A stretch of 22,443 nucleotides of DNA, from the NCBI GenBank assembly GCA_910576795.1, contig CAJTIX010000022.1, positions 1 through 22,443 of the forward strand, in the 5' to 3' direction. Within the stretch, counting starts at the first letter, position 1. Every line of letters begins with the position of its first letter. This DNA comes from an uncultured Bacilli bacterium. Lineage in GTDB: Bacteria; Bacillota_I; Bacilli_A; RF39; UBA660. Below the pieces are notes generated by a model that worked only from the letters and a program-made list of their open reading frames with translations, did not search any database and had not been told where the DNA came from. Shown here piece by piece: positions 6,098 to 18,333 of this stretch. The position numbers and the translations under genes were made by a program.

Positions 6098-7132
6098 ATG
6101 AAGAAAGCAGTTCAAGTATTGTTTGTTATATTATTTTTATTATTGATTGGTTTGGGTATTGTATTTGGTGTTTCAAAGGTGTTACAGAAAGAGAATCATT
6201 CAAATGAAGAGGAACAACCACCAGTGGAAGAAATTCCAGTTCCCAAATTACAGATTATAGATGAAGATTCTAATAGTAGACCTTATGCGGTTATGATCAA
6301 TAATCATGCGCAAGCCAGAAAGAATCATGCAGGTTTACAAGATGCATATGTCGTATATGAGATGATTGTAGAGGGTGGTTTGACACGTTTGATGGCGGTT
6401 TTTAAGGATCAAACAACAGCGCGCATTGGATCTGTTCGTAGTTCTCGTCATAATTTTTTGGATTATGCATTAGAACATGATGCGATTTATGTTCATTTTG
6501 GTTGGAGTCCAAAAGCCCAGACGGATATATCGGCATTAAAAGTTTCCAATATTAATGGATTATATGATGATGGTTTTTATCGAGATCGTAGTCTAGGTGT
6601 TGCTTATGAGCATACGGCATTTACAGATATGGAACGTATTCAAAATACAGCTACTCAGAAAGGATATCGTATGACTTCTGAACAACCTTTGTTACTTCAT
6701 TATAGTGTTGATGAGATTGGATTAGAGGAAAGGGAAGATGCGATTTTAGCTTCTTCTGTTATTCTAAGATATTCTGCATATGTAACTTCTTCTTATCAAT
6801 ATGATGAGGCTAGAAAAGTATATTTGCGTTCTGTAAATGATGAAATTCATAAAGATGCGATTACTGGTGAACAATATTATTTTAAGAACATTATTATTGC
6901 AAATGTAAATAATTATAATATGGATTCTTATGGAAGACAAAATTTAGATACGGTTGGAACAGGAACAGGCTATTATATGACAAACGGGTATGCTGTACCA
7001 ATTACTTGGAGTAAATCTTCCAGAACTGCACAAACGGTATATTCATATTTAGATGGAACCCCAATTACTGTGAATGATGGAAACACGTTTATTCAAATAT
7101 TTCCAACGAATCAAACTGCAATTATTTCATAA
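6098..7132 (+). CDS. DUF3048 (YerB-like) secreted or membrane-anchored protein
   Basis: The ORF track starts at GTG 6089. ATG 6098 has better RBS spacing (AGGTGA at 6086-6091). There is an N-terminal TM/signal segment, and PYAVMINNHAQARKNHAGLQDAYVVYEMIVEGGLTRLMAVF matches the DUF3048 core as I remember it. Confidence 0.8.
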   Translation: MKKAVQVLFVILFLLLIGLGIVFGVSKVLQKENHSNEEEQPPVEEIPVPKLQIIDEDSNSRPYAVMINNHAQARKNHAGLQDAYVVYEMIVEGGLTRLMAVFKDQTTARIGSVRSSRHNFLDYALEHDAIYVHFGWSPKAQTDISALKVSNINGLYDDGFYRDRSLGVAYEHTAFTDMERIQNTATQKGYRMTSEQPLLLHYSVDEIGLEEREDAILASSVILRYSAYVTSSYQYDEARKVYLRSVNDEIHKDAITGEQYYFKNIIIANVNNYNMDSYGRQNLDTVGTGTGYYMTNGYAVPITWSKSSRTAQTVYSYLDGTPITVNDGNTFIQIFPTNQTAIIS

Positions 7133-7158
7133 CCTATGTTGAAAAACATAGGTTTTTC
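7131..7158 (+). terminator. Rho-independent terminator
   Basis: A perfect 10-bp stem AACCTATGTT/AACATAGGTT with GAAA loop is followed by TTTTT. It overlaps the stop codon. Confidence 0.85.
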
Positions 7159-7266
7159 AATGGCTATCCTTATTTTATAGAAATAAATTTAAAAAATGTT
7201 ACAAAAATAATGATTAAATTCTAAATTTTATGATATAATGTAATAGTACTTGAGGTGAAAGTAAAA

Positions 7267-7779
7267 ATGGTCAATTATCATCGAGACAATCAATATATGA
7301 AATTAGTGAGTCCGATTTTAGAAAATAAAGAATTTAGTCAGTTAGAAACAGTGGTCCATCATGGTACAACTCGTATGAATCATTCTCTTAGAGTTTCTTA
7401 TTATTCTTATAAAATTGCGAAAGCTTTATGTTTGGATTATGATCAAGTTGCACGCGCTGGATTGTTGCATGATTTCTTTTTAGATCGTACTGTAGATTAT
7501 GAAAAAACAAAGGATAAAGTTTTATTATTTACAACAGGACATCCTAAGGTAGCTGCTGAGAATGCAAAAAAGTATTTTTCTTTGACGGAAAAAGAAGAAG
7601 ATATGATTAAAACTCATATGTTTCCAGTTGACTATCGTATTCCAAAATATGCAGAGAGTTGGATTATATGTGCAGTGGATAAGCTTGTAGGACTTTATGA
7701 GTTTGGGCGTAAGTTTAAATATCAACTTACATACGGATTTAATTTTTCTTTATTACTCATGTTAAATATTTTAAAATAG
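7267..7779 (+). CDS. HD-domain phosphohydrolase
   Basis: The track starts at GTG 7255. ATG 7267 sits 8 nt after RBS GAGGTGA, and an extended -10 TGATATAAT lies at 7231-7239. The motifs H..R(HSLRVS) and the HD dyad in LLHDFF are present. Confidence 0.75.
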   Translation: MVNYHRDNQYMKLVSPILENKEFSQLETVVHHGTTRMNHSLRVSYYSYKIAKALCLDYDQVARAGLLHDFFLDRTVDYEKTKDKVLLFTTGHPKVAAENAKKYFSLTEKEEDMIKTHMFPVDYRIPKYAESWIICAVDKLVGLYEFGRKFKYQLTYGFNFSLLLMLNILK

Positions 7780-7798
7780 GGTAAAACCTATTTTTTTT
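7776..7798 (+). terminator. Weak intrinsic terminator after the HD gene
   Basis: A 5-bp stem ATAGG/CCTAT is followed by a T8 run. Confidence 0.4.
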
Positions 7799-7826
7799 CG
7801 AATTCAATATGATACAATATTAACAA

Positions 7827-7902
7827 GTTCTCGTAGCTCAGCAGGATAGAGCAGTCCCCTCCTAAGGGACCGATACGGGTTCGAGTCCTGTCGGGAACAC
7901 CA
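7827..7902 (+). tRNA. tRNA-Arg (anticodon CCT), CCA encoded
   Basis: Folded by hand into a cloverleaf: acceptor GTTCTCG/CGGGAAC, D-arm GCTC..GAGC, anticodon stem GTCCC/GGGAC with loop CTCCTAA (anticodon CCT), T-arm ACGGG-TTCGAGT-CCTGT, discriminator A and CCA. Confidence 0.9.
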
Positions 7903-7915
7903 TTTATGGACAATT

Positions 7916-7940
7916 AAACTGATACTATACATCAGTTTTT
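7916..7940 (+). terminator. Intrinsic terminator after tRNA-Arg
   Basis: An 8-bp stem AAACTGAT/ATCAGTTT with a 7-nt loop runs into TTTTT. Confidence 0.6.
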
Positions 7941-7995
7941 GTTTATGTGTAAATATTATTTAGAAAATAATTTATGAAAATAAGAGGAAAGTATT

Positions 7996-8253
7996 ATGGT
8001 AGATTGTAATGAATTATATCGTCTGATTGGTAAAAATTTATCAAATATTCGTCATAAGTTTGGAATTGGGACTCAAGCGAAATTGTCAGAAGATACAAAT
8101 TTAAGTATGAGTTTTATTTCACAGATTGAAAGCCCAAATGTTGATAAAGGGATATCAATAGACACATTATTTTTAATTAGCCAACAATATTGTATAGATA
8201 TTCGTAGGTTTTTTGATGATTATGAAAAGTTAATGTCACTAGAAAAAGAATAA
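7996..8253 (+). CDS. XRE-family helix-turn-helix transcriptional regulator
   Basis: An 85-aa ORF with RBS AGAGGAAA. LRHKFGIGTQAKLSEDTNLSMSFISQIES fits the HTH_3 pattern (Q..LA....S.S.IS.IE). It is the first gene after the tRNA. Confidence 0.65.
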   Translation: MVDCNELYRLIGKNLSNIRHKFGIGTQAKLSEDTNLSMSFISQIESPNVDKGISIDTLFLISQQYCIDIRRFFDDYEKLMSLEKE

Positions 8254-8455
8254 TTTTAACTCTCTTTCACATTTTTCGATGGTAAGTGACCGATATGATT
8301 TTAAATTTAGCTAGGACACTGATAGTTTATTTACTATTGTTATTTAAGTTAAGTTTTTTTGTTTTGTTTATAATATATATTTTTTATTAATTTCCGAACT
8401 ATCTTTTAAAAAAAGAAAAACTTATGTTATAATACCAACTAGGAGTTGTGATGTT

Positions 8456-9040
8456 GTGCTGCAAGTAAATAGAAATGGTGCCTTGAAAATACCAAAGGAA
8501 ATTGAATTATATGAGACCAATTCTAATAGTATAGATGATGCGATTGCAATTAAAAAAGCTTTGGCGATTGCAAATGAGCAAAAAATAAATACAAATAAAT
8601 TAAAGGAACAATTGGAAATGGAAGACCAAGATCTTCAAATGATTTCTAAGATTCCATTCAATGCAAATGATTTAATGGTAATTACAGTAGTGAAAAAATT
8701 AGGTGCTTATGTAATTGCTGTGACAGAGAAATCACCCAAAAAATTTAGAGGTGTATTTGTCAACCGTATGCAAAATTATTGTTTGGATGCTTTAGAGTTA
8801 TTATTACAAGCCAATTTTACTCGAATGGATTCTCAAGCAAACAAGATGATACGAGACCAATTTCAAAAAGAAGCTATTGTAAAATTAAAATTGCTAGGTT
8901 ATGTTGCCATGGTAGCGCAGAGTTCCAATTGTATTTTAATGCGTCAATATAAGCAAATATCCATTCAACTCGCAGAGGCGATTAATTTGATTGTTGCTTG
9001 GAAAAAGAGTGATGATGAAAGATGGCGTAAGAAAATTTAG
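8456..9040 (+). CDS. avd: Avd-like DGR accessory protein (four-helix-bundle family) with an N-terminal extension; start uncertain
   Basis: It lies directly upstream of the TR. The C-terminal ~120 aa (AVTEKSPKKFRGVFVNRMQNYCLDALELLLQAN ... ISIQLAEAINLIVAWKKS, basic tail) parallel the BPP-1 Avd layout (P+K motif in helix 1-2, basic C-terminus) as I remember it. GTG 8456 follows AGGAG (8441-8445) by 10 nt. In-frame ATGs at 8615 and 8639 would give a more typical Avd size. Confidence 0.55.
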   Translation: MLQVNRNGALKIPKEIELYETNSNSIDDAIAIKKALAIANEQKINTNKLKEQLEMEDQDLQMISKIPFNANDLMVITVVKKLGAYVIAVTEKSPKKFRGVFVNRMQNYCLDALELLLQANFTRMDSQANKMIRDQFQKEAIVKLKLLGYVAMVAQSSNCILMRQYKQISIQLAEAINLIVAWKKSDDERWRKKI

Positions 9041-9410
9041 GATTTTAGACTGAAAGGTCTTTGATTAAGGAGAAAATTTAAATTGTGCGTTTTTGTTTAG
9101 CCCCCTAGTTGTGCTCGCGCGCGTCGTTAACAAAAACGGTAATAGAAACTAAAACAATGTAAGAAAACGGAATGGTGGGGCGCGTCCAGATTCACTTTTG
9201 AAGAGATTTTTTAATAAATCTAGAAAACAGATGAGAAAAGTTTATTTTAGGTAAAATAAATCCGTGTTGTAAGGTGAAGGAATTTTCTTCTTTTCCAATC
9301 GCTAAAAGATCACTCTCAGGTGCGATGGAAAAATACATAAACACTCACACAAACAACGAATGTATGCATTCTTTGGGCGTTATAAGGGGTGTTTTTTTAA
9401 AGGAGTATTT
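9041..9410 (+). ncRNA. Putative DGR template RNA (TR plus 3' spacer region)
   Basis: This non-coding interval between avd and the RT contains the TR (9116-9192). About 215 nt of spacer follows, with small stems such as AGATTT/AAATCT and CCAATCGC/GCGATGG. The exact RNA ends are unknown. Confidence 0.5.
9116..9192 (+). repeat. DGR template repeat (TR)
   Basis: It is 77 nt and 66/77 identical to 10714-10790. All 11 differences are A in this copy. It is intergenic and contains an in-frame TAA, so it is the non-coding template copy. Confidence 0.92.
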
Positions 9411-10442
9411 ATGAATTTAGAACAAATTTTTACGTTTGAAAATTTATATCAGGCATATCAGGCATGTCGTAAGTCAAAACAACATAAAGGGGAAGTCATC
9501 CGTTTCGAAACCAATTTATCTGTAAATCTATATCAATTGATGAAAGATCTTTATGCCAAAAAATATTGCCTTGGCAAGTATAAACAATTTTATATTTATG
9601 AACCAAAGCAAAGATTGATAGAGGCTTTGCCTTTTAAAGATCGAGTTGTAATTCGGTGTTTTTGTGAAGTTTGTTTAAAACCTAAGGTAGAGAAAAAGTT
9701 GATCTATGACAATTGTGCATGTCGTAAAAATAAAGGAACAACATTTGCGATTGAAAGGTTACATCAATTTTTAAGGAAAGTATATTGGAAGCAAAATAAC
9801 CATCATTTTTATTTTTTAAAGTGTGATATTCATAAATATTTTCCTAGTATCAATCATGATATTTTATTACATTTATTGAAGAAGATTCCTTTTTCAGAAG
9901 ATGAGATGTGGATGATTCAAAAGTTGATTCAGGAGCAACCAAATAATGCGAGTAGGGGTCTACCGCTTGGAAATCAGTCTAGCCAATGGTTTGCCCTTTA
10001 TTATTTAAATGAAATAGATCGTTATGTGAAAGAGGTATTACGTGTAAAATATTATGTAAGATATATGGATGATATGATATTGATTCATTGGGATAAGAAT
10101 TTTTTAATTCATTGTAAACATGAAATAAACCGTTTATGCCATGAGGTATTGGATTTAGAACTCAATCAAAAAACGCAAATTGGCATGGTGAAAAATGGGG
10201 TTGATTTTTTAGGATACCGGCATATTGTTAGTCCTAGTGGGAAAGTAGTGATGAAACTCAGATATTCTTCAAAACAAAGAATGAAAAAACATTTGAAAAC
10301 ATTACGAAAATTATATCGTAAGAAAATTGTAGATGAATCCTATGTATTGATTCGTAAAAACGCCTTTTATAATCATGTCAAAAACACAAGTGAATCTTCC
10401 AAATGGTGGAGCGAATTATTTTTAGCTGAAGAAAAAATGTAA
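9411..10442 (+). CDS. DGR-type reverse transcriptase
   Basis: ATG 9411 sits 5 nt after AGGAG (the track ORF from 9360 has no RBS). The 343-aa protein has the RT motifs FYIYEPKQRLIEALPFKDRVV and KCDIHKYFPSI. It also has the DGR-specific motif 4 LGNQSSQ (9966-9986) and the catalytic YMDD (10062-10073). There is no maturase or endonuclease extension. Confidence 0.9.
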   Translation: MNLEQIFTFENLYQAYQACRKSKQHKGEVIRFETNLSVNLYQLMKDLYAKKYCLGKYKQFYIYEPKQRLIEALPFKDRVVIRCFCEVCLKPKVEKKLIYDNCACRKNKGTTFAIERLHQFLRKVYWKQNNHHFYFLKCDIHKYFPSINHDILLHLLKKIPFSEDEMWMIQKLIQEQPNNASRGLPLGNQSSQWFALYYLNEIDRYVKEVLRVKYYVRYMDDMILIHWDKNFLIHCKHEINRLCHEVLDLELNQKTQIGMVKNGVDFLGYRHIVSPSGKVVMKLRYSSKQRMKKHLKTLRKLYRKKIVDESYVLIRKNAFYNHVKNTSESSKWWSELFLAEEKM

Positions 10443-10504
10443 AAAAATGACAAAATTTGTCTACAATGAGCAAAATTGTGTTATGATATAGATGGTGATT
10501 GACT

Positions 10505-12433
10505 ATGTTAGATTTTACATTTCCAGAAATAAATCAAATATTTGGTGATAAACAATCAGATATATTTAAAGCATACGGAACGAAGTGTGCCATATCGGAT
10601 TTTGCTATTTTATTAGGTGGTTTTGTAGCAAATGGAATATATACAAGTGAGGGAAATACTCTAAAAGATCGTACTGGTTATTGGTGGACCAGAACTTCTG
10701 ATGGAGATAATGACGCGCGCGTCGTTATCAGGAACGGTAATAGAGACTTAGACAGTGTAAGGAAGCGGTATGGTGGGGCGCGTCCAGCTTTACCATACTC
10801 ATCCATCTCTTCTTTCTCCTCGAACGGAGTGAGAGGGGCTAATGGGCTTCTTGAAGTTGAGTTTGGAGAATATCCACAAACTGTTGTAACAGATATCTTT
10901 TCAAATTCATTGGAAAATGTGTACCAACAAGGTGTACTACAGATCGTACAAAAGTATACAACGGATTCAGTTAATTATTCTGATTATGACACGGATTTGC
11001 AGATTCGTGAGTTTAGCGTGTACGAATATATAGGAGAAAAGTATATTCGCTTTTTGGGTGACCAAAATGCAAGTGGTGAAACGCTTTCTAATGGGGCTCA
11101 AGTTGAAATTGGAAAGCCCTATTGGGTGAAAGTTGAGCCAATTCGTTGGTTAGTAGATGAAAGAAATGATTTTGCCATCGCCAAAAAAATATTATTTGCA
11201 GGTGTACAATTCAATCATATTAGAAACTATATGGGAGATTTTTTACAAACAACGATTAAAAAATTCATGGATCAATTTTTTTCAAAAGAAATAATAATCA
11301 ATACAAATAACCTAACAAGGGTAGTGGAACAAGAGAAAGACTTGAATGGTAAAAATTTAAGAAAACAGAACCCATATGGATTCCATTTTGAATCTGTATC
11401 TGAAGAAGATATCATAAGGGGTGCTTTGGAAAGTAACGTATCTGTATTCTTACATGGTAGGTCAAGCGAAGGAAAATCGGCAAGGGTAAAACAATTTGAT
11501 CCAGACTGTGAAATTCTATATATGAGAAACGCAACACCAGATAGCTTGAATGGAAAAAGTGTTTATAATGCCGCAACAGGGGAAATGATTGATGTACCAC
11601 CTACTTGGTATTCACGTGTATTAGAAAAATGCGAAACAGAACCAAATAAGATTCATATTGTATTTTTTGATGAACTAACCAATGCCCTTCCTTCTATTCA
11701 AGGGATGGCCTTTAATATTGTATTAGATGGTGAAGTGAATGGAAAATGGAAATTGCCATCTAATGCTAGAATTGTAGCGGCTGGAAATGATTTAAATGAT
11801 TCATTGGCTGCGAATCAAATGGCAGAGCCATTGTTCAATCGTTTCGCCCATGTTTATATTCATACAACGGTAGAGCAGTGGTTAAAATGGGCATCCACAC
11901 CTGCAAATTACTATGAAAGATTGGACTATAAAGAAGAGAATCAAAATATGAAAATTCATCCCTCTATATATGCTTATGTTGCGTATAAATCCTATAGTGG
12001 AATGGATGTATTAAGAACACCATATACAGGTGATAAACCAAATGCCGATCCAAGAAAGTGGGAAATGGCCTCTAAAATCTTATATAAAACGGGACAACCT
12101 GAAATGTTAAGAGCATTAGTTGGTAATGAATTAACAAGGGATTTTGTAGCGTTTGCAAAATCACAGGTAATTAGTGTAAAAGATGTCATTGAACATAATT
12201 ATTCAGAGAGCGATTTTCAAATGGATTTATCCCAAAAATTTGCAACAGCAGTGGGACTATCCTCTGTAGATGATGCCAATTTTGAAGTAGTAAGAGAATT
12301 TATGAAACAAGTTGGGGCAGAACCAAGAGCTGCTTTTGAAACAATGTGGGCATATGGAGATGAGAAAAGATTAGAGCGCCTTTTGGAATTACAAATGATG
12401 GAACATAATCTTCAAGGAGGAATGAAAAAATGA
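10505..12433 (+). CDS. DGR target protein: an N-terminal VR-bearing putative lectin-like ligand-binding domain fused to a MoxR-like AAA+ ATPase
   Basis: The track starts at TTG 10499; ATG 10505 follows GGTGA by 6 nt. Using track numbering, the VR spans codons 72-98 (YWWTRTSDGDNDARVVIRNGNRDLDSVRKRYGGARPAL). Walker A is GRSSEGKS (aa 320-327, nt 11456-11479), Walker B is IVFFDE (aa 387-392) and the sensor-1-like motif is ARIVAAGND. MAEPLFNRF parallels the MoxR LP.A..DRF motif. There is no signal peptide or TM segment. Confidence 0.85.
   Translation: MLDFTFPEINQIFGDKQSDIFKAYGTKCAISDFAILLGGFVANGIYTSEGNTLKDRTGYWWTRTSDGDNDARVVIRNGNRDLDSVRKRYGGARPALPYSSISSFSSNGVRGANGLLEVEFGEYPQTVVTDIFSNSLENVYQQGVLQIVQKYTTDSVNYSDYDTDLQIREFSVYEYIGEKYIRFLGDQNASGETLSNGAQVEIGKPYWVKVEPIRWLVDERNDFAIAKKILFAGVQFNHIRNYMGDFLQTTIKKFMDQFFSKEIIINTNNLTRVVEQEKDLNGKNLRKQNPYGFHFESVSEEDIIRGALESNVSVFLHGRSSEGKSARVKQFDPDCEILYMRNATPDSLNGKSVYNAATGEMIDVPPTWYSRVLEKCETEPNKIHIVFFDELTNALPSIQGMAFNIVLDGEVNGKWKLPSNARIVAAGNDLNDSLAANQMAEPLFNRFAHVYIHTTVEQWLKWASTPANYYERLDYKEENQNMKIHPSIYAYVAYKSYSGMDVLRTPYTGDKPNADPRKWEMASKILYKTGQPEMLRALVGNELTRDFVAFAKSQVISVKDVIEHNYSESDFQMDLSQKFATAVGLSSVDDANFEVVREFMKQVGAEPRAAFETMWAYGDEKRLERLLELQMMEHNLQGGMKK
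10714..10790 (+). repeat. DGR variable repeat (VR) with a GC-rich IMH-like 3' end
   Basis: This is the coding copy of the 77-nt repeat. It differs from the TR only where the TR has A. The 3' GGTGGGGCGCGTCCAG is a GC island in AT-rich DNA. Confidence 0.92.
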
Positions 12434-12831
12434 ACCAAGAAAGATTCAATTTATTGGAAAATTATATAAAGGTTGGTGTATCTCCATTATTAGTAAAAAA
12501 TATATCATCTCATTCATTTCGAAATTCTGTTGTGATTGAGTCCAATATAAAACAATCAGAACTAAATGGACACTATGAAAATACCCTATTTTGTCCACCT
12601 ATGTGGTACCAAGATTTGCTACAAAAAAGTAAAAATGGAACTGTTGTTTTGGTGATTGAAAATATCAATGAAATAAGGGTAGAAGAACAGACAAAATTTA
12701 TAGAAATCCTCAAATACAAAAAAGTGAGTACATTTGATTTGCCAAAAAATTGTTTGATAGTAGTTACTTGTTCTGATGCTAGTATATATAAAATAAATGA
12801 AGAAGTTTATTCTTTATTGGCCCAAATATAA
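12430..12831 (+). CDS. Small protein paralogous to the C-terminal half of the upstream AAA+ core; lacks Walker A and has a degenerate Walker B
   Basis: The ATGA start/stop overlap with the target gene indicates translational coupling. PPMWYQDLLQK...VVLVIENINE...DLPKNCLIVVTCSD aligns by eye with PPTWYSRVLEK...IHIVFFDELTN...KLPSNARIVAAGND of the upstream protein. Confidence 0.6.
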   Translation: MNQERFNLLENYIKVGVSPLLVKNISSHSFRNSVVIESNIKQSELNGHYENTLFCPPMWYQDLLQKSKNGTVVLVIENINEIRVEEQTKFIEILKYKKVSTFDLPKNCLIVVTCSDASIYKINEEVYSLLAQI

Positions 12832-12840
12832 GGATAGAAT

Positions 12841-14271
12841 ATGAATATAGAATTACTGAAAAGAAAATTACTCGTAAAATATCCTTTCTTTGGAAGTATA
12901 ATTGCGCATTCTAACTGTGTTGTAGAACCATCGATTGAAACTGCAGGGACAGATGGTACGAATATTTATTATAATCCGAATTATATGGAAACTCTTACAG
13001 AGGATGAACAAATATTTGTATTCGCTCATGAAATTAGTCATATTGCATTTAGTCATATGGATAGAAGTGCTGGAAAAGATCGAAAACTCTGGAATATCGC
13101 AACTGATGCGGTTGTGAATGCTTTTCTAAAACAGGATGGTCTAACTGCAGTGAAGGGTATTGTTGACATGGAAGATGCGATTGATTATGATGCCGAAGAA
13201 ATGTATCAAAAACTATTAGCTCAAAAGCAACAAGATGGCAAACAAGGAAATCAGAGCAATGAATCTAAAACACAAAGTGGACAAAACAATTCCAATTCGT
13301 CTTCTAATAATACACAAAATGGTAAAGAAGAAAAACAGGATGCAAATCATGATGTTGGACATGATACACATTCTATGTGGGATAAGGCGATAGAGAAAAA
13401 ACAAAAAGAACAGTTAGAAGAAAGCTCTGAACAATCTAGTACTTCAAATGAATTCAAAGATTTCCTGGATAAGATAAGTAAAATGTTTTCAAAGAAAAAG
13501 GAAAAATCAGAACAACAACCGAATGAAAAAGTAAATCAAGAGAATATCAAGAATGAAGAAATTAAAAAAATAACAGAATTAGGTGAAAAAAGAGCATTTC
13601 AACAAAATAGGGTTGAACGAAAAAAACAACTAGAAGAATTGAGACAAGCATTGATTCATCAATCACAAGGGCATGGAAGTGATACCAATAGTCAAAAAAT
13701 AAATATAACGGATATTGGGATATCGGAACCACTTATTGATTGGCGCATGTTACTAAAAGAGGCAGTTCAATATGATGTGGATTGGTCTTATCAAAATGCA
13801 GGAATAGAAGATGGCGTTGTAACTGCATATTTGGAAGAGATACCAAGACCAGAAACAGAGATTGTTTTAGATACAAGTGGTTCCATCAATGAAACACTTC
13901 TTAGAAATTTTTTAAGAGAATGTAAAAACATTTTACAAAATTCTAAAGTGAAAGTAGGTTGTTTTGATACAAAATTTTACGGTTTTACCGAGATCAAGCA
14001 GTTATCCGATATTGATTATTTACCCTTTTATGGTAGAGGTGGAACTAACTTTGAAGTAGCAGTAAATGCTTTTACAAGAAGAGTAGAAAATAAGATTATT
14101 TTTACAGATGGAGATGCAGATATGCCAACTACAAATATAGATGCGATTTGGATTGTATTTGGAAATCATAAAATTCAACCCAAAGGAGGAAGGGTTATTT
14201 ATATCAATGCAGAACAACTTCAAGCATTGGCATCTATGTATTTAATAAATGATAAGGGAAGGTCTAGATGA
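12841..14271 (+). CDS. Putative zinc metallopeptidase domain (DUF2201_N-like, HExxH) - low-complexity linker - VWA-like domain (DUF2201-like, MIDAS DxSGS)
   Basis: It starts 9 nt after the previous stop. The N-terminus KYPFFGSII...TAGTDGTNIYYNP...FVFAHEISHIAFSHM...WNIATDAVVN contains HEISH at 13027-13041. Residues ~125-290 are Q/N/S/E/K-rich. The C-terminus IVLDTSGSINE (DTSGS at 13870-13884)...GRGGTNFE...IIFTDGDADMP is a VWA-like domain. This domain pair is the classic partner of MoxR ATPases. Confidence 0.85.
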   Translation: MNIELLKRKLLVKYPFFGSIIAHSNCVVEPSIETAGTDGTNIYYNPNYMETLTEDEQIFVFAHEISHIAFSHMDRSAGKDRKLWNIATDAVVNAFLKQDGLTAVKGIVDMEDAIDYDAEEMYQKLLAQKQQDGKQGNQSNESKTQSGQNNSNSSSNNTQNGKEEKQDANHDVGHDTHSMWDKAIEKKQKEQLEESSEQSSTSNEFKDFLDKISKMFSKKKEKSEQQPNEKVNQENIKNEEIKKITELGEKRAFQQNRVERKKQLEELRQALIHQSQGHGSDTNSQKINITDIGISEPLIDWRMLLKEAVQYDVDWSYQNAGIEDGVVTAYLEEIPRPETEIVLDTSGSINETLLRNFLRECKNILQNSKVKVGCFDTKFYGFTEIKQLSDIDYLPFYGRGGTNFEVAVNAFTRRVENKIIFTDGDADMPTTNIDAIWIVFGNHKIQPKGGRVIYINAEQLQALASMYLINDKGRSR

Positions 14272-15312: not shown

Positions 15313-16188
15313 ATGATTTTAAATGTAAGTGGAAGAACAGATATTGTGGCATTTTATTCTGATTGGTTTATGAAAAGATATCAAGAAGGATTTGTAGATG
15401 TGAGAAATCCTTTTTATCCAAAACAAATCAGTCGTATTTATTTTGAAGATGTGGATGCGATTGTTTTTTGTACCAAAAATCCTATTCCAATTTTAAATCA
15501 ATTGAAAATGATTGAAAAACCCATTCTTTTTCATGTTACCTTAACCCCTTATTTAAAAGAAATCGAACCCAATGTTCCACCAAAAGGAAAAATCATAGAG
15601 GCAATCAAACAGTTATCTTCTATTGTTGGAATTGACCATTTATGTATACGTTATGATCCTGTCTTTTTAAGTGATCAATATGATATTTCCTATCATAAAA
15701 AAGCTTTTGATCATATGTGTTCTTTGTTAAATGGATTTGTAAAAACCATTATTGTATCCTTTATAGATGATTATAAAAATGTTCGTAAAAATCAATTGAT
15801 ATTGAAGACAAGAGAGTTTACCGATGAAGATTATAGAGAAATCGGAATTTCATTTAGTGAAAGTGCAAAACGAAATGGTATGACAGTGCAAACGTGTTAT
15901 GAGGCAAGAAATTTAACAGAATATGGATTTAGAAAAGGGGAGTGCTTATCTAAATCTTGTGCGTATCAGTTAACAGGTAAAACTTATCCAAAATGGGGTG
16001 CTAGAAAATGTGGTTGTATCGAAATGGTCGATATTGGTGTTTACAATTCCTGTAAGCATTTTTGTAAGTATTGTTATGCTAATTATGATGAAAAATTAGT
16101 CATGTCACATTTTGGAAATCATAATCCGAGTAGTAGTTTATTAATTGGTAATTTAGAACAGGATGACGTTATAAAAAGAAGAAAATGA
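15313..16188 (+). CDS. DUF1848-family protein with a C-terminal CX3CX2C cluster
   Basis: A 291-aa ORF. The N-terminus ILNVSGRTDIVAFYSDWFMKRYQEGFVDVRNPF is typical of DUF1848 as I remember it. The cluster CKHFCKYC lies at 16051-16074. Confidence 0.7.
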   Translation: MILNVSGRTDIVAFYSDWFMKRYQEGFVDVRNPFYPKQISRIYFEDVDAIVFCTKNPIPILNQLKMIEKPILFHVTLTPYLKEIEPNVPPKGKIIEAIKQLSSIVGIDHLCIRYDPVFLSDQYDISYHKKAFDHMCSLLNGFVKTIIVSFIDDYKNVRKNQLILKTREFTDEDYREIGISFSESAKRNGMTVQTCYEARNLTEYGFRKGECLSKSCAYQLTGKTYPKWGARKCGCIEMVDIGVYNSCKHFCKYCYANYDEKLVMSHFGNHNPSSSLLIGNLEQDDVIKRRK

Positions 16189-16351
16189 AGAGTAAAGTAT
16201 AGTAGTTCGTTTTAGATGAAATTACATTTTATTTGTAATAGTTTTCTATATAAATTTTATTTTAGAAAGGAAAAAAGTAAGTATCTAATAACTGTAAGTT
16301 AAACCCTCTAAAAATTGCAAAAATTTTTTCCAAAATTATTAAAATTAAGAT

Positions 16352-18259: not shown

Positions 18260-18333
18260 TGGTGCCGCCTGTAAGAATCGAACTTACGACTGAGCCTTAC
18301 CATGGCTCTGTTATACCACTTAACTAAGGCGGC
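18260..18333 (-). tRNA. tRNA-Thr (anticodon GGT), CCA encoded
   Basis: The reverse complement folds into a cloverleaf: acceptor GCCGCCT/AGGCGGC, D-arm GTTA-AGTGGTA-TAAC, anticodon stem GAGCC/GGCTC with loop ATGGTAA (anticodon GGT), T-arm GTAAG-TTCGATT-CTTAC, then A and CCA. Confidence 0.9.

Follow-up and report, generated by a model that had tools for sequence, protein, structure and literature searches.

The locus described here raises the question of whether a pair of short repeats on either side of a reverse transcriptase (RT) gene forms a genuine diversity-generating retroelement (DGR), and which kind of protein such an element would diversify on a bacterial chromosome. The DNA analyzed, called the window below, consists of positions 1 to 22,443 of contig CAJTIX010000022.1 (forward strand; NCBI GenBank assembly GCA_910576795.1) from an uncultured Bacilli bacterium (GTDB lineage Bacteria; Bacillota_I; Bacilli_A; RF39; UBA660), and all positions refer to it unless a locus is named. 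A preliminary description, made from the sequence of the window alone, had read the two repeats as the template repeat (TR) and the variable repeat (VR) of a DGR. This reading is now supported by an Avd-like gene, the TR, a covarying spacer RNA, a DGR-type RT, and adenine-only divergence of the VR, and we have hardly any doubt that the two repeats belong to a true DGR, which acts on this VR. It is also very probable that the element as a whole is a chromosomal DGR of uncultured low-GC gut Bacilli, which rewrites a predicted hairpin of about 25 codons in an AAA+ ATPase target. The core of the DGR is canonical, and the architecture of its target departs from the usual one.

Adenine-specific divergence of the repeat pair

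The TR sits between the Avd-like gene and the RT gene, and the whole cassette lies directly upstream of the target gene, which contains the VR.

9116-9189, + strand: TR, 74 nt with 28 adenines; a homologous TR is found at the same place in 17 further loci
10505-12433, + strand: DGR target gene, the 642-aa product of which joins an N-terminal variable module to an AAA+ ATPase
10714-10787, + strand: VR, codons 70-95 of the target gene counted from the ATG
10772-10787, + strand: GC-rich 3' element GGTGGGGCGCGTCCAG, similar to an initiation of mutagenic homing (IMH) element and identical to TR 9174-9189; the homology ends directly downstream

Re-alignment of 9116-9192 with 10714-10790 (offset 1598) reproduced the 66 identities in 77 positions reported before, and the 11 mismatches (9130, 9133, 9134, 9147, 9151, 9153, 9157, 9164, 9167, 9171, and 9190) all fall on an adenine of the TR, where the VR has T, G, G, G, T, G, G, G, G, T, and C, respectively. 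The check for mismatches at non-adenine template positions in these 77 nt returned none, and with 29 adenines in the 77 nt the hypergeometric probability is 5.2e-6, in agreement with the earlier hand calculation (about 5e-6). Read in the frame of the VR, the TR carries seven AAY codons (AAC four times and AAT three times). The codon changes listed in the preliminary description (at I77, R78, D83, L84, D85, S86, R88, K89, Y91, and A97) are right if numbered from the TTG at 10499, and 2 has to be subtracted for numbering from the ATG at 10505, which is almost certainly the start of the target gene because the homologues begin with MNNFTFL. Both copies start with (CG)4 and close with GGTGGGGCGCGTCCAG, as had been noted, and placing an IMH-like element at GGTGGGGCGCGTCCAG agrees with what is seen across the family.

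Adenine mutagenesis, claimed before for all 11 sites, holds for 10 of them and probably not for 9190. At this position the TR has GAT and the VR has GCT (the Ala codon of a conserved RPALPY motif), and the same difference is seen in all of the 18 DGR-linked loci (18/18). Because of this constancy, and because the sequence just 3' of the TR, GATTCACTTTTGAAG, is near-invariant across species, the transferred tract most likely ends at the mismatch at 9190, which would then not be a mutagenized adenine. Against such a boundary, some family members that have no adjacent RT carry GTT at the equivalent codon, and mutagenesis followed by strong selection for Ala or Val may be the alternative. When the TR is taken as 9116-9189, there are 10 mismatches, 10/10 at adenines (28 adenines in 74 nt), with p = 1.8e-5. 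The end of the similarity, placed before at 9192/10790, has likewise to be moved slightly, as a weak similarity runs on to 9195/10793 with one non-adenine mismatch.

The pair is the top repeat returned by a repeat finder for 7000-13000. The 16-nt block GGTGGGGCGCGTCCAG has only two sites in the window, even if up to three mismatches are allowed (0.02 chance matches expected), and right after this block the two copies diverge (CTTTAC versus ATTCAC), an arrangement shared by 18/18 loci. The GC-rich 3' end of the VR is kept in most family members, many of which have no adjacent RT. The TR is non-coding in the VR frame because of an in-frame TAA at 9150-9152.

Diversification among relatives

One genome per GTDB species was scanned for relatives of the target, which were found in 188 species representatives, and 78 loci were fetched. 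Separate look-ups of the Avd-like protein and of the 133-aa partner protein (see below) returned L080 and L081, which match the window at 100% identity; as they share its source, they add no independent support. In 17 other loci that have a full-length RT, a TR/VR pair occupies the two equivalent places, and these and the window are the 18 loci of the TR/VR comparisons. When the mismatches of the window and 16 of these loci were pooled (L034 was left out because of an indel in its VR), 179 of 189 were at TR adenines, which account for 33% of the TR bases; A was changed to G in 81 cases, to T in 49, and to C in 49. Between closely related loci, the differences are concentrated in the VR, as follows.

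Window and L001: 1 TR difference; 11 VR differences, 11 at TR adenines; downstream flank 96.5% identical
L059 and L068: 0 TR differences; 14 VR differences, 14 at TR adenines; downstream flank 99.3% identical
L050 and L052: 0 TR differences; 12 VR differences, 12 at TR adenines; downstream flank 99.3% identical

L001, which comes from another sample, is the sister of the window locus (96-97% identical over 11 kb). The sole TR difference between the two is at 9167 (A to C), and the VR of L001 carries the C of its own TR there. On the protein level, entropy over 138 full-length homologues has its peak exactly at aa 72-89, the C-terminal half being almost invariant, and the VR-equivalent stretch is hypervariable in 60/60 full-length members.

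The DGR itself is not present next to every target. In 56 loci the upstream sequence is long enough to tell: a complete RT adjoins the target in 14, there is only a partial or displaced match to the RT in 10, and no RT is found there in 32. Eight loci (L003, L026, L033, L038, L054, L055, L057, and L065) have neither Avd nor TR, and all that is left of the RT just upstream of the target is a 5'-truncated remnant; this looks like repeated DGR decay while the target and its two partner genes (see below) persist. In L007 (2827-6729) the Avd-TR-RT cassette is intact and the adjacent 613-aa target lacks the whole VR segment, and in L034 (6199-6300) a 1-nt indel between VR and TR leads to a frameshift of the target with many stops from codon 110. 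Most DGR-less loci (e.g., L042, L043, L048, L049, L055, and L058, some with no RT match within 6 kb and some with a remnant only) keep GC-rich VR ends (5' GATGTCCGC and 3' GTTCGCCCAG) like those of the DGR-linked paralogues and are equally variable. These ends and the equal variability suggest DGRs acting in trans or a very recent loss of the DGR, both of which are plausible; several genomes hold at least two target paralogues.

An exact look-up of the window RT found no identical entry on record, and a search of GTDB genomes and JGI metagenomes with the adenine-masked TR/VR pattern, which was too strict, gave 0 matches.

The cassette: Avd-like gene, spacer RNA, and RT

8456-9040, + strand: Avd-like accessory gene, 194 aa, with the Avd-like part at aa 75-185
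9190-9395, + strand: spacer RNA, conserved and structured, between TR and RT
9191-9198 pairing with 9271-9278: helix H2 of the spacer RNA
9204-9221, 9240-9261, and 9294-9329: hairpins of the spacer RNA
9339-9346 pairing with 9387-9394: last stem of the spacer RNA, followed by a T-run
9411-10442, + strand: DGR-type RT, 343 aa (Pfam RVT_1, E 9e-17)

The RT motifs pointed out in the preliminary description are present (LGNQSSQ at 9966-9986 and YMDD at 10062-10073), the former fitting the pattern [I/L/V]GxxxSQ and the latter the pattern YxDD of DGR-clade RTs. Among solved structures, the best match of the RT is PDB 8ub7 (a 328-aa reverse transcriptase; E 5e-37), in which IGSLTSQ is aligned with LGNQSSQ and YMDD with YMDD, and which we take to be the Bordetella phage DGR RT. 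The RT also matches 128 phage records, Bordetella phage records included, and Phage nd12 is among the best of them (40% identity). The DGR of Phage nd12 also targets an N-terminal DUF6273 domain (PMC10743442).

Of the 17 other loci with a TR, 14 have a homologue of the Avd-like gene at the same position (55-69% identity, and 98% in the sister locus), the remaining three having too little upstream sequence to show it.

Between TR and RT, an alignment of 15 loci from different species, analyzed with RNAalifold and by counting of pairs, supports a spacer RNA of ~200 nt with 50 pairs in eight helices, of which 23 pairs show compensatory changes. In this fold 94.4% of the alignment cells are paired, compared with 40-55% when the partners are slid by 1-3 columns, and none of 500 shuffles reached the observed score. 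The first long helix joins the immediate 3' flank of the TR (9191-9198) to 9271-9278, and it covaries (CA/TG to TG/CA). The last helix (AAACACTC / GGGTGTTT), followed by a T-run just before the ribosome-binding site of the RT gene, looks like an intrinsic terminator; a simple terminator scan did not list this helix (9339-9400).

A variable module fused to an AAA+ ATPase

The VR encodes aa 70-95, near the N-terminus of the target, homologues of which fall into >3000 clusters at 90% protein identity. Over its first ~100 residues the target is weakly similar to the end of Pfam DUF6273 (PF19789) that carries the VR, and the homologues P0001 (27.3 bits) and P0062 (25.4 bits) pass the cutoff of this family, over the last ~70-90 profile positions only. 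DUF6273 was described as C-type-lectin-like with the VR on a beta-hairpin, and 5'-proximal VRs were called rare (PMC10743442); a survey of 372 DGRs contained three with an N-terminal VR (PMC5758913). An AlphaFold2 model based on 41 homologues (mean predicted local distance difference test score, pLDDT, 77; mostly 80-95 over aa 1-260 and 74-95 over aa 1-100) places the VR on the two strands of a beta-hairpin (aa 69-74 and 80-84). This model replaced an earlier, unusable one made from 30 sequences (mean pLDDT 52.9, Foldseek template modeling (TM) score ~0.13). The Foldseek lists were filled by the ATPase half, so that no lectin-fold match was obtained for the N-terminal module, and tblastn found no match for this module in 50,697 phage records at E ≤1e-3. 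In P0001, P0003, P0149-P0154, and P0157 (~890-940 aa), two tandem variable modules of ~270 aa precede a single ATPase, and each of the tandem modules has its own VR-like stretch (WWW...GGxRPALPY), as read directly in P0001 and inferred from the length for the others.

The ATPase core of the target is located as follows, within residues ~300-450.

11456-11674, + strand: AAA+ core, with Walker A GRSSEGKS at 11456-11479 and Walker B IVFFDE at 11657-11674

We conclude that the C-terminal half of the target is a MoxR/dynein-type AAA+ ATPase. Searched alone, this half retrieved 3992 cluster representatives, 227 of them at E ≤1e-30, and homologues at 35-40% identity pass AAA_5 (P0219 with 40.8, P0271 with 29.1, and P0255 with 28.6 bits) and AAA_3 (P0219 with 38.7 bits). 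Foldseek matched the ATPase half of the model to minichromosome maintenance (MCM) subunits, the NorQ hexamer, the NorQ-NorD VWA complex, and phage ATPases annotated as 'dynein-related' or 'MoxR-like' (E 1e-6 to 6e-13). The target of the window by itself gave only noise against PDB, as a single sequence and as a profile, and nothing significant in Pfam, NCBIfam, or PADLOC. No membrane segment is predicted (the maximal 19-residue hydropathy is 1.50, just under the Kyte-Doolittle cutoff of ~1.6), and no signal-peptide-like N-terminus was seen; we infer that the target is cytoplasmic.

A conserved triad of target, p133, and DUF2201 protein

12430-12831, + strand: p133, a 133-aa partner gene, the start of which overlaps the target stop codon
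12841-14271, + strand: DUF2201 protein, 476 aa (Pfam DUF2201_N, E 1e-30; DUF2201, E 4.7e-12; Peptidase_M48, E 1.4e-4)
13027-13041: HEISH, the intact HExxH motif of the DUF2201 protein
13870-13884: DTSGS, the DxSxS metal ion-dependent adhesion site (MIDAS) motif of the DUF2201 protein

Directly after the target, p133 is found in the large majority of the 78 loci. It has no match in Pfam, NCBIfam, or PADLOC, and aligns weakly (pairwise E 0.003) with the segment of the target from Walker B to sensor 1, on which basis p133 may be a degenerate ATPase fragment. The DUF2201 protein has at its N-terminus a putative metallopeptidase domain, in which the HExxH motif is intact, and a linker of low complexity joins this domain to a C-terminal von Willebrand factor A (VWA)-like domain with the MIDAS motif; no repeat matching the TR was found in it. 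The three genes occur, in this order or nearby, in almost all of the 78 loci. Nearly all of the hosts are uncultured 'Bacilli' or 'Tenericutes' represented by metagenome-assembled genomes (MAGs) from the gut of humans, rabbits, ruminants, and mice; one complete chromosome among these MAGs has 1.46 Mb.

Stop codons in template and variable repeats

The in-frame TAA of the window TR falls on the codon that is Trp in the family consensus, where the VR of the window has TTA (Leu). In-frame TAA, TAG, or TGA codons are present in 12 of the 18 TRs, mostly at this conserved-Trp site and at the second variable codon, and six of the 18 VRs (L001, L008, L010, L020, L023, and L075) have a stop where their own TR has a stop codon. 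In each of these six, this is the only in-frame stop of the gene; in L001, it splits the target into open reading frames (ORFs) of 81 and 534 aa. Genetic code 4 (TGA = Trp) was considered and rejected: TGA ends the same stop-bearing genes where expected and nowhere else in frame, so that the code is standard, and TAA and TAG are also found in the VRs. The other stop-capable codons of the window TR are two AAA and two AGA codons. A point stressed in the literature is the inability of AAY codons to yield stops (bioRxiv 10.1101/2024.11.15.621889), and our literature searches found nothing specific on TR-encoded stop codons or on the present target architecture. The TAA and TGA codons may serve to make Trp, Cys, Tyr, Phe, and Leu accessible where aromatic residues are preferred, with null alleles arising often as the price, or the null state itself may be useful.

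Proposed mechanism and function

The following steps are taken from established DGR biology as far as cDNA synthesis and retrohoming are concerned, and from analogy to MoxR-VWA pairs and related systems (PMC7159879, PMC10907252) for sensing and signal transduction. The cassette of Avd-like gene, TR, spacer RNA, and RT would be transcribed, and the RT together with Avd would copy the TR RNA into cDNA, misincorporating opposite template adenines. The cDNA would then replace the VR, guided by the common GC-rich ends (5' CGCGCGCGTCGTT and 3' GGTGGGGCGCGTCCAG). The variable module, with its predicted hairpin, could act as a programmable ligand sensor, and ligand binding would be passed on via the ATPase to the VWA-metallopeptidase partner, as in MoxR-VWA pairs. 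A copy that was left unmutated at the TAA codon would be a null allele, by which the element could also switch the target off.

Judging by analogy, we tentatively suggest a sensor or conflict function in intracellular surveillance as a possibility that falls somewhat short of being probable. The most far-reaching version of this idea, which we regard as doubtful, is that the triad is an undescribed intracellular surveillance system of non-multicellular gut Bacilli with small genomes, in which an AAA+ motor with a receptor programmable to ~1e13 stop-free protein variants would drive the VWA-metallopeptidase once a ligand is bound, deliberate stops in the TR would keep both null and armed alleles, and one DGR would serve several paralogous targets in trans.

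Comparison with known systems

The Bordetella phage BPP-1 DGR (Mtd/Avd/TR/bRT) is the prototype of these elements, and the order and strand of the Avd-like gene, TR, and RT are the same here. Shared features are also the adenine-specific mismatches, a GC-rich 3' element of the VR common to the TR, and a structured RNA 3' of the TR, the first helix of which pairs the 3' flank of the TR with the downstream spacer; the Bordetella element needs RNA downstream of its TR for cDNA priming. The target is located downstream of the RT here, whereas it is upstream in BPP-1, and the VR is N-terminal instead of C-terminal. The TR is also different, having 74 nt and an in-frame stop codon here and ~134 nt in BPP-1, and the present locus is chromosomal with housekeeping flanks, not a phage tail-fiber locus. 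The Bordetella phage element has a hairpin downstream of its VR, and none was detected here.

The tentaclins of phages nd4 and nd12 (PMC10743442) resemble the present target in the VR near the gene's 5' end, the DUF6273-like segment, and the predicted beta-hairpin, and the nd12 RT is, as stated above, among the best phage matches of the window RT. The tentaclins run into Ig-like/Fn3 domains and are extracellular receptor-binding proteins, whereas the module is here fused to an AAA+ ATPase in a cellular operon.

In the VMAP ternary conflict systems of cyanobacteria and purple sulfur bacteria (PMC7159879, PMC10907252), a DGR-diversified ligand-binding domain is likewise coupled to a MoxR-type ATPase and a VWA protein, and cytoplasmic localization and peptidase partners were predicted for some systems of this type (PMC7159879, PMC10907252). 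Their VR belongs to an FGE-type lectin domain at the C-terminus, in most cases that of the vWA protein, and MoxR is encoded separately and not diversified, while here the ATPase itself bears an N-terminal VR. The VWA protein has an HExxH metallopeptidase domain (DUF2201_N) here, and the hosts are gut Bacilli with small genomes, not multicellular bacteria. The label of a VMAP ternary system was considered and rejected, as the triad is similar to such systems in outline and lacks two of their defining features, i.e., a VMAP component recognizable with Pfam, NCBIfam, or PADLOC and a vWA protein that is the target with its VR in a C-terminal FGE-type lectin domain.

The ATPase half also matches, at the level of the fold, that of the NorQ-NorD and CbbQ-CbbO type of pairs (matches to the NorQ hexamer and the NorQ-NorD VWA complex with E 1.5e-6 and TM 0.41-0.42 on the target), and a MIDAS-bearing VWA partner is encoded in the same operon in both cases. 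Unlike these pairs, to which the sequence similarity is too low for a PDB sequence match, the target has in addition a variable module of 280 aa at its N-terminus and a long region of helices at its C-terminus; a peptidase domain is present in the partner, and a link to a metalloenzyme client is not evident.

Alternative explanations

The repeats could in principle be an ordinary duplication or gene-conversion tract with normal mutation, in which the adenine bias arose by chance or from AT-rich composition, since in a genome with 30.5% GC and a TR with 38% A, adenines are the likeliest bases to be hit. We consider this explanation effectively refuted by the hypergeometric values of the window locus alone (1.8e-5 to 5e-6), by the pooled mismatches with the same bias in 16 other loci, by the directional change between close strains, in which the TR is constant and the VR variable, and by the adjoining DGR-type RT and Avd-like gene. 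It is a more serious objection that the DGR of the window may be a recently inactivated relic, whose mismatches are fossil and whose VR is frozen in this strain. Decay of DGRs is common in the family, as illustrated by the eight remnant loci, by the L007 target that lacks the VR segment next to an intact cassette, and by the 32/56 loci with no RT upstream, and a published survey discarded more than half of its candidate DGRs as defective (PMC5758913). In the window, however, the Avd-like gene, TR, spacer RNA helices, RT (YMDD), and both VR ends are intact, there is zero non-adenine drift inside the TR, and L001 has a different VR with nearly the same TR, all of which make a relic quite improbable.

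For the function, it is conceivable that the main selected role of the element is on/off switching (phase variation) through the stops of the TR, more than exploration of binding specificities. The recurrence of the stops at mostly two positions in 12/18 TRs, and the 6/18 VRs in which such a stop is the only one of the gene, as in the split L001 target, would agree with this. Yet the same TRs carry at least seven AAY codons, which are incapable of giving stops, and the stop-free protein repertoire of the window TR is ~1e13; TGA and TAA at the Trp site reach residues that AAY cannot fully reach, so that the stops are perhaps a tolerated cost; and six TRs have no stop at all. The consensus sequence of a MAG, moreover, may misstate the dominant allele, and we think it unlikely that switching is the main role. 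Another view of the triad, as a housekeeping MoxR-VWA system for chaperoning or maturation, in which the variable module would tune the recognition of endogenous or dietary substrates, draws on the function of NorQ-NorD-type pairs in cofactor insertion and protein maturation, the match of the model to NorQ structures, the absence of matches to defense-system models (PADLOC), and the housekeeping genes in the flanks. A hypervariable binding surface is hard to square with a fixed endogenous client, DGR-diversified lectin-fold domains with MoxR and vWA proteins were tied to conflict systems (PMC7159879, PMC10907252), and genomes contain several paralogues, some with the variable module duplicated in tandem; such a housekeeping role thus appears unlikely to us as well.

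Several points weigh against our own reading of the locus as a DGR with an ATPase target and a possible surveillance function. Both matches of the Avd-like protein are below threshold (Pfam bAvd, E 2.7e-4, profile positions 6-106 of 107, 21.8 bits versus a cutoff of 40; NCBIfam DivGenRetAVD, E 1.9e-6, positions 3-103 of 104, 28.1 bits versus a cutoff of 80), and no hairpin is supported downstream of the VR (folding z = -0.47). The window target itself reaches DUF6273 only with E 0.11 (12.8 bits, where the cutoff is 23.5; aa 56-96 aligned with profile positions 127-168), 29 of 30 members of its own subfamily stay below the AAA_5 cutoff (best E 0.0078), and the domain assignments rest on homologues and on a model of moderate confidence in the ATPase half. 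The defense-system models of PADLOC gave 0 matches for the target, p133, and the DUF2201 protein, and neither a VMAP-like component nor adaptor or effector domains were detected at the triad with Pfam, which presumably holds VMAP models, NCBIfam, or PADLOC. The VR of the window is a single consensus sequence, for which the evidence of activity is comparative, not read-level or experimental, and the stop-bearing VRs are MAG consensus sequences too, which could misrepresent mixed populations.

Significance

The targets of DGRs have mostly been described as phage tail fibers or as surface proteins anchored in the membrane, their VR lying in a lectin fold at the C-terminus (PMC8144416), and cytoplasmic NTPase-linked targets were proposed as antigen sensors mainly in multicellular bacteria, where the VR is on a separate vWA or STAND protein (PMC10907252, PMC7159879). 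The present target is unusual in its N-terminal VR, in the compact DUF6273-like module fused directly to an AAA+ motor, in the conserved triad with an HExxH/VWA protein, in its unicellular gut commensal hosts with small genomes, and in the stops encoded by the template. If the sensor reading is true, anticipatory recognition based on DGRs reaches unicellular, genome-reduced commensals, and the triad offers a compact three-gene experimental system. The stops of the TRs contradict the textbook point that the AAY design avoids nonsense codons, and surveys that drop targets with premature stops may drop a real biological state. The target architecture and the null-allele feature are of specialist interest and directly testable.

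Neighborhood of the element

7827-7902, + strand: tRNA-Arg(CCT)
7996-8253, + strand: helix-turn-helix (HTH) gene of the Cro/C1 type (Pfam HTH_19, E 7e-6, under the curated cutoff)
8405-8433, + strand: promoter-like site (TTTAAA-17-TATAAT, extended TG) from a consensus scan, preceding the Avd-like gene
15313-16188: DUF1848 gene (PADLOC model 'RTasDUF1848', E 5.6e-29; the model describes a component associated with defense RTs)
18260-18333, - strand: tRNA-Thr(GGT)

The locus is chromosomal: the flanks consist of housekeeping genes (ProRS, LspA, RluD, rhomboid, and QueH), by which a prophage origin was ruled out, and the GC content of the genome is 30.5%. The promoter-like site at 8405-8433 is weak evidence for a promoter, since such sites are no commoner than expected from shuffled sequence. 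The DUF1848 gene was considered as a part of the system and rejected, as, apart from a fragment in L024, it is a neighbor of the triad in no locus but the window and L001; a connection with the DGR is thus improbable. The HTH gene lies in a segment of ~490 bp (7903-8396) between tRNA-Arg and the Avd-like gene, which is absent from L001, and homologues (58-59% identity) are located upstream of Avd on the opposite strand in L037, L050, and L051; judging from this position, it may be a regulator or a cassette-associated gene. The two tRNA genes, tRNA-Arg(CCT) and tRNA-Thr(GGT), bracket the region with the DGR and the triad, and synteny with L001 stops near 16300.

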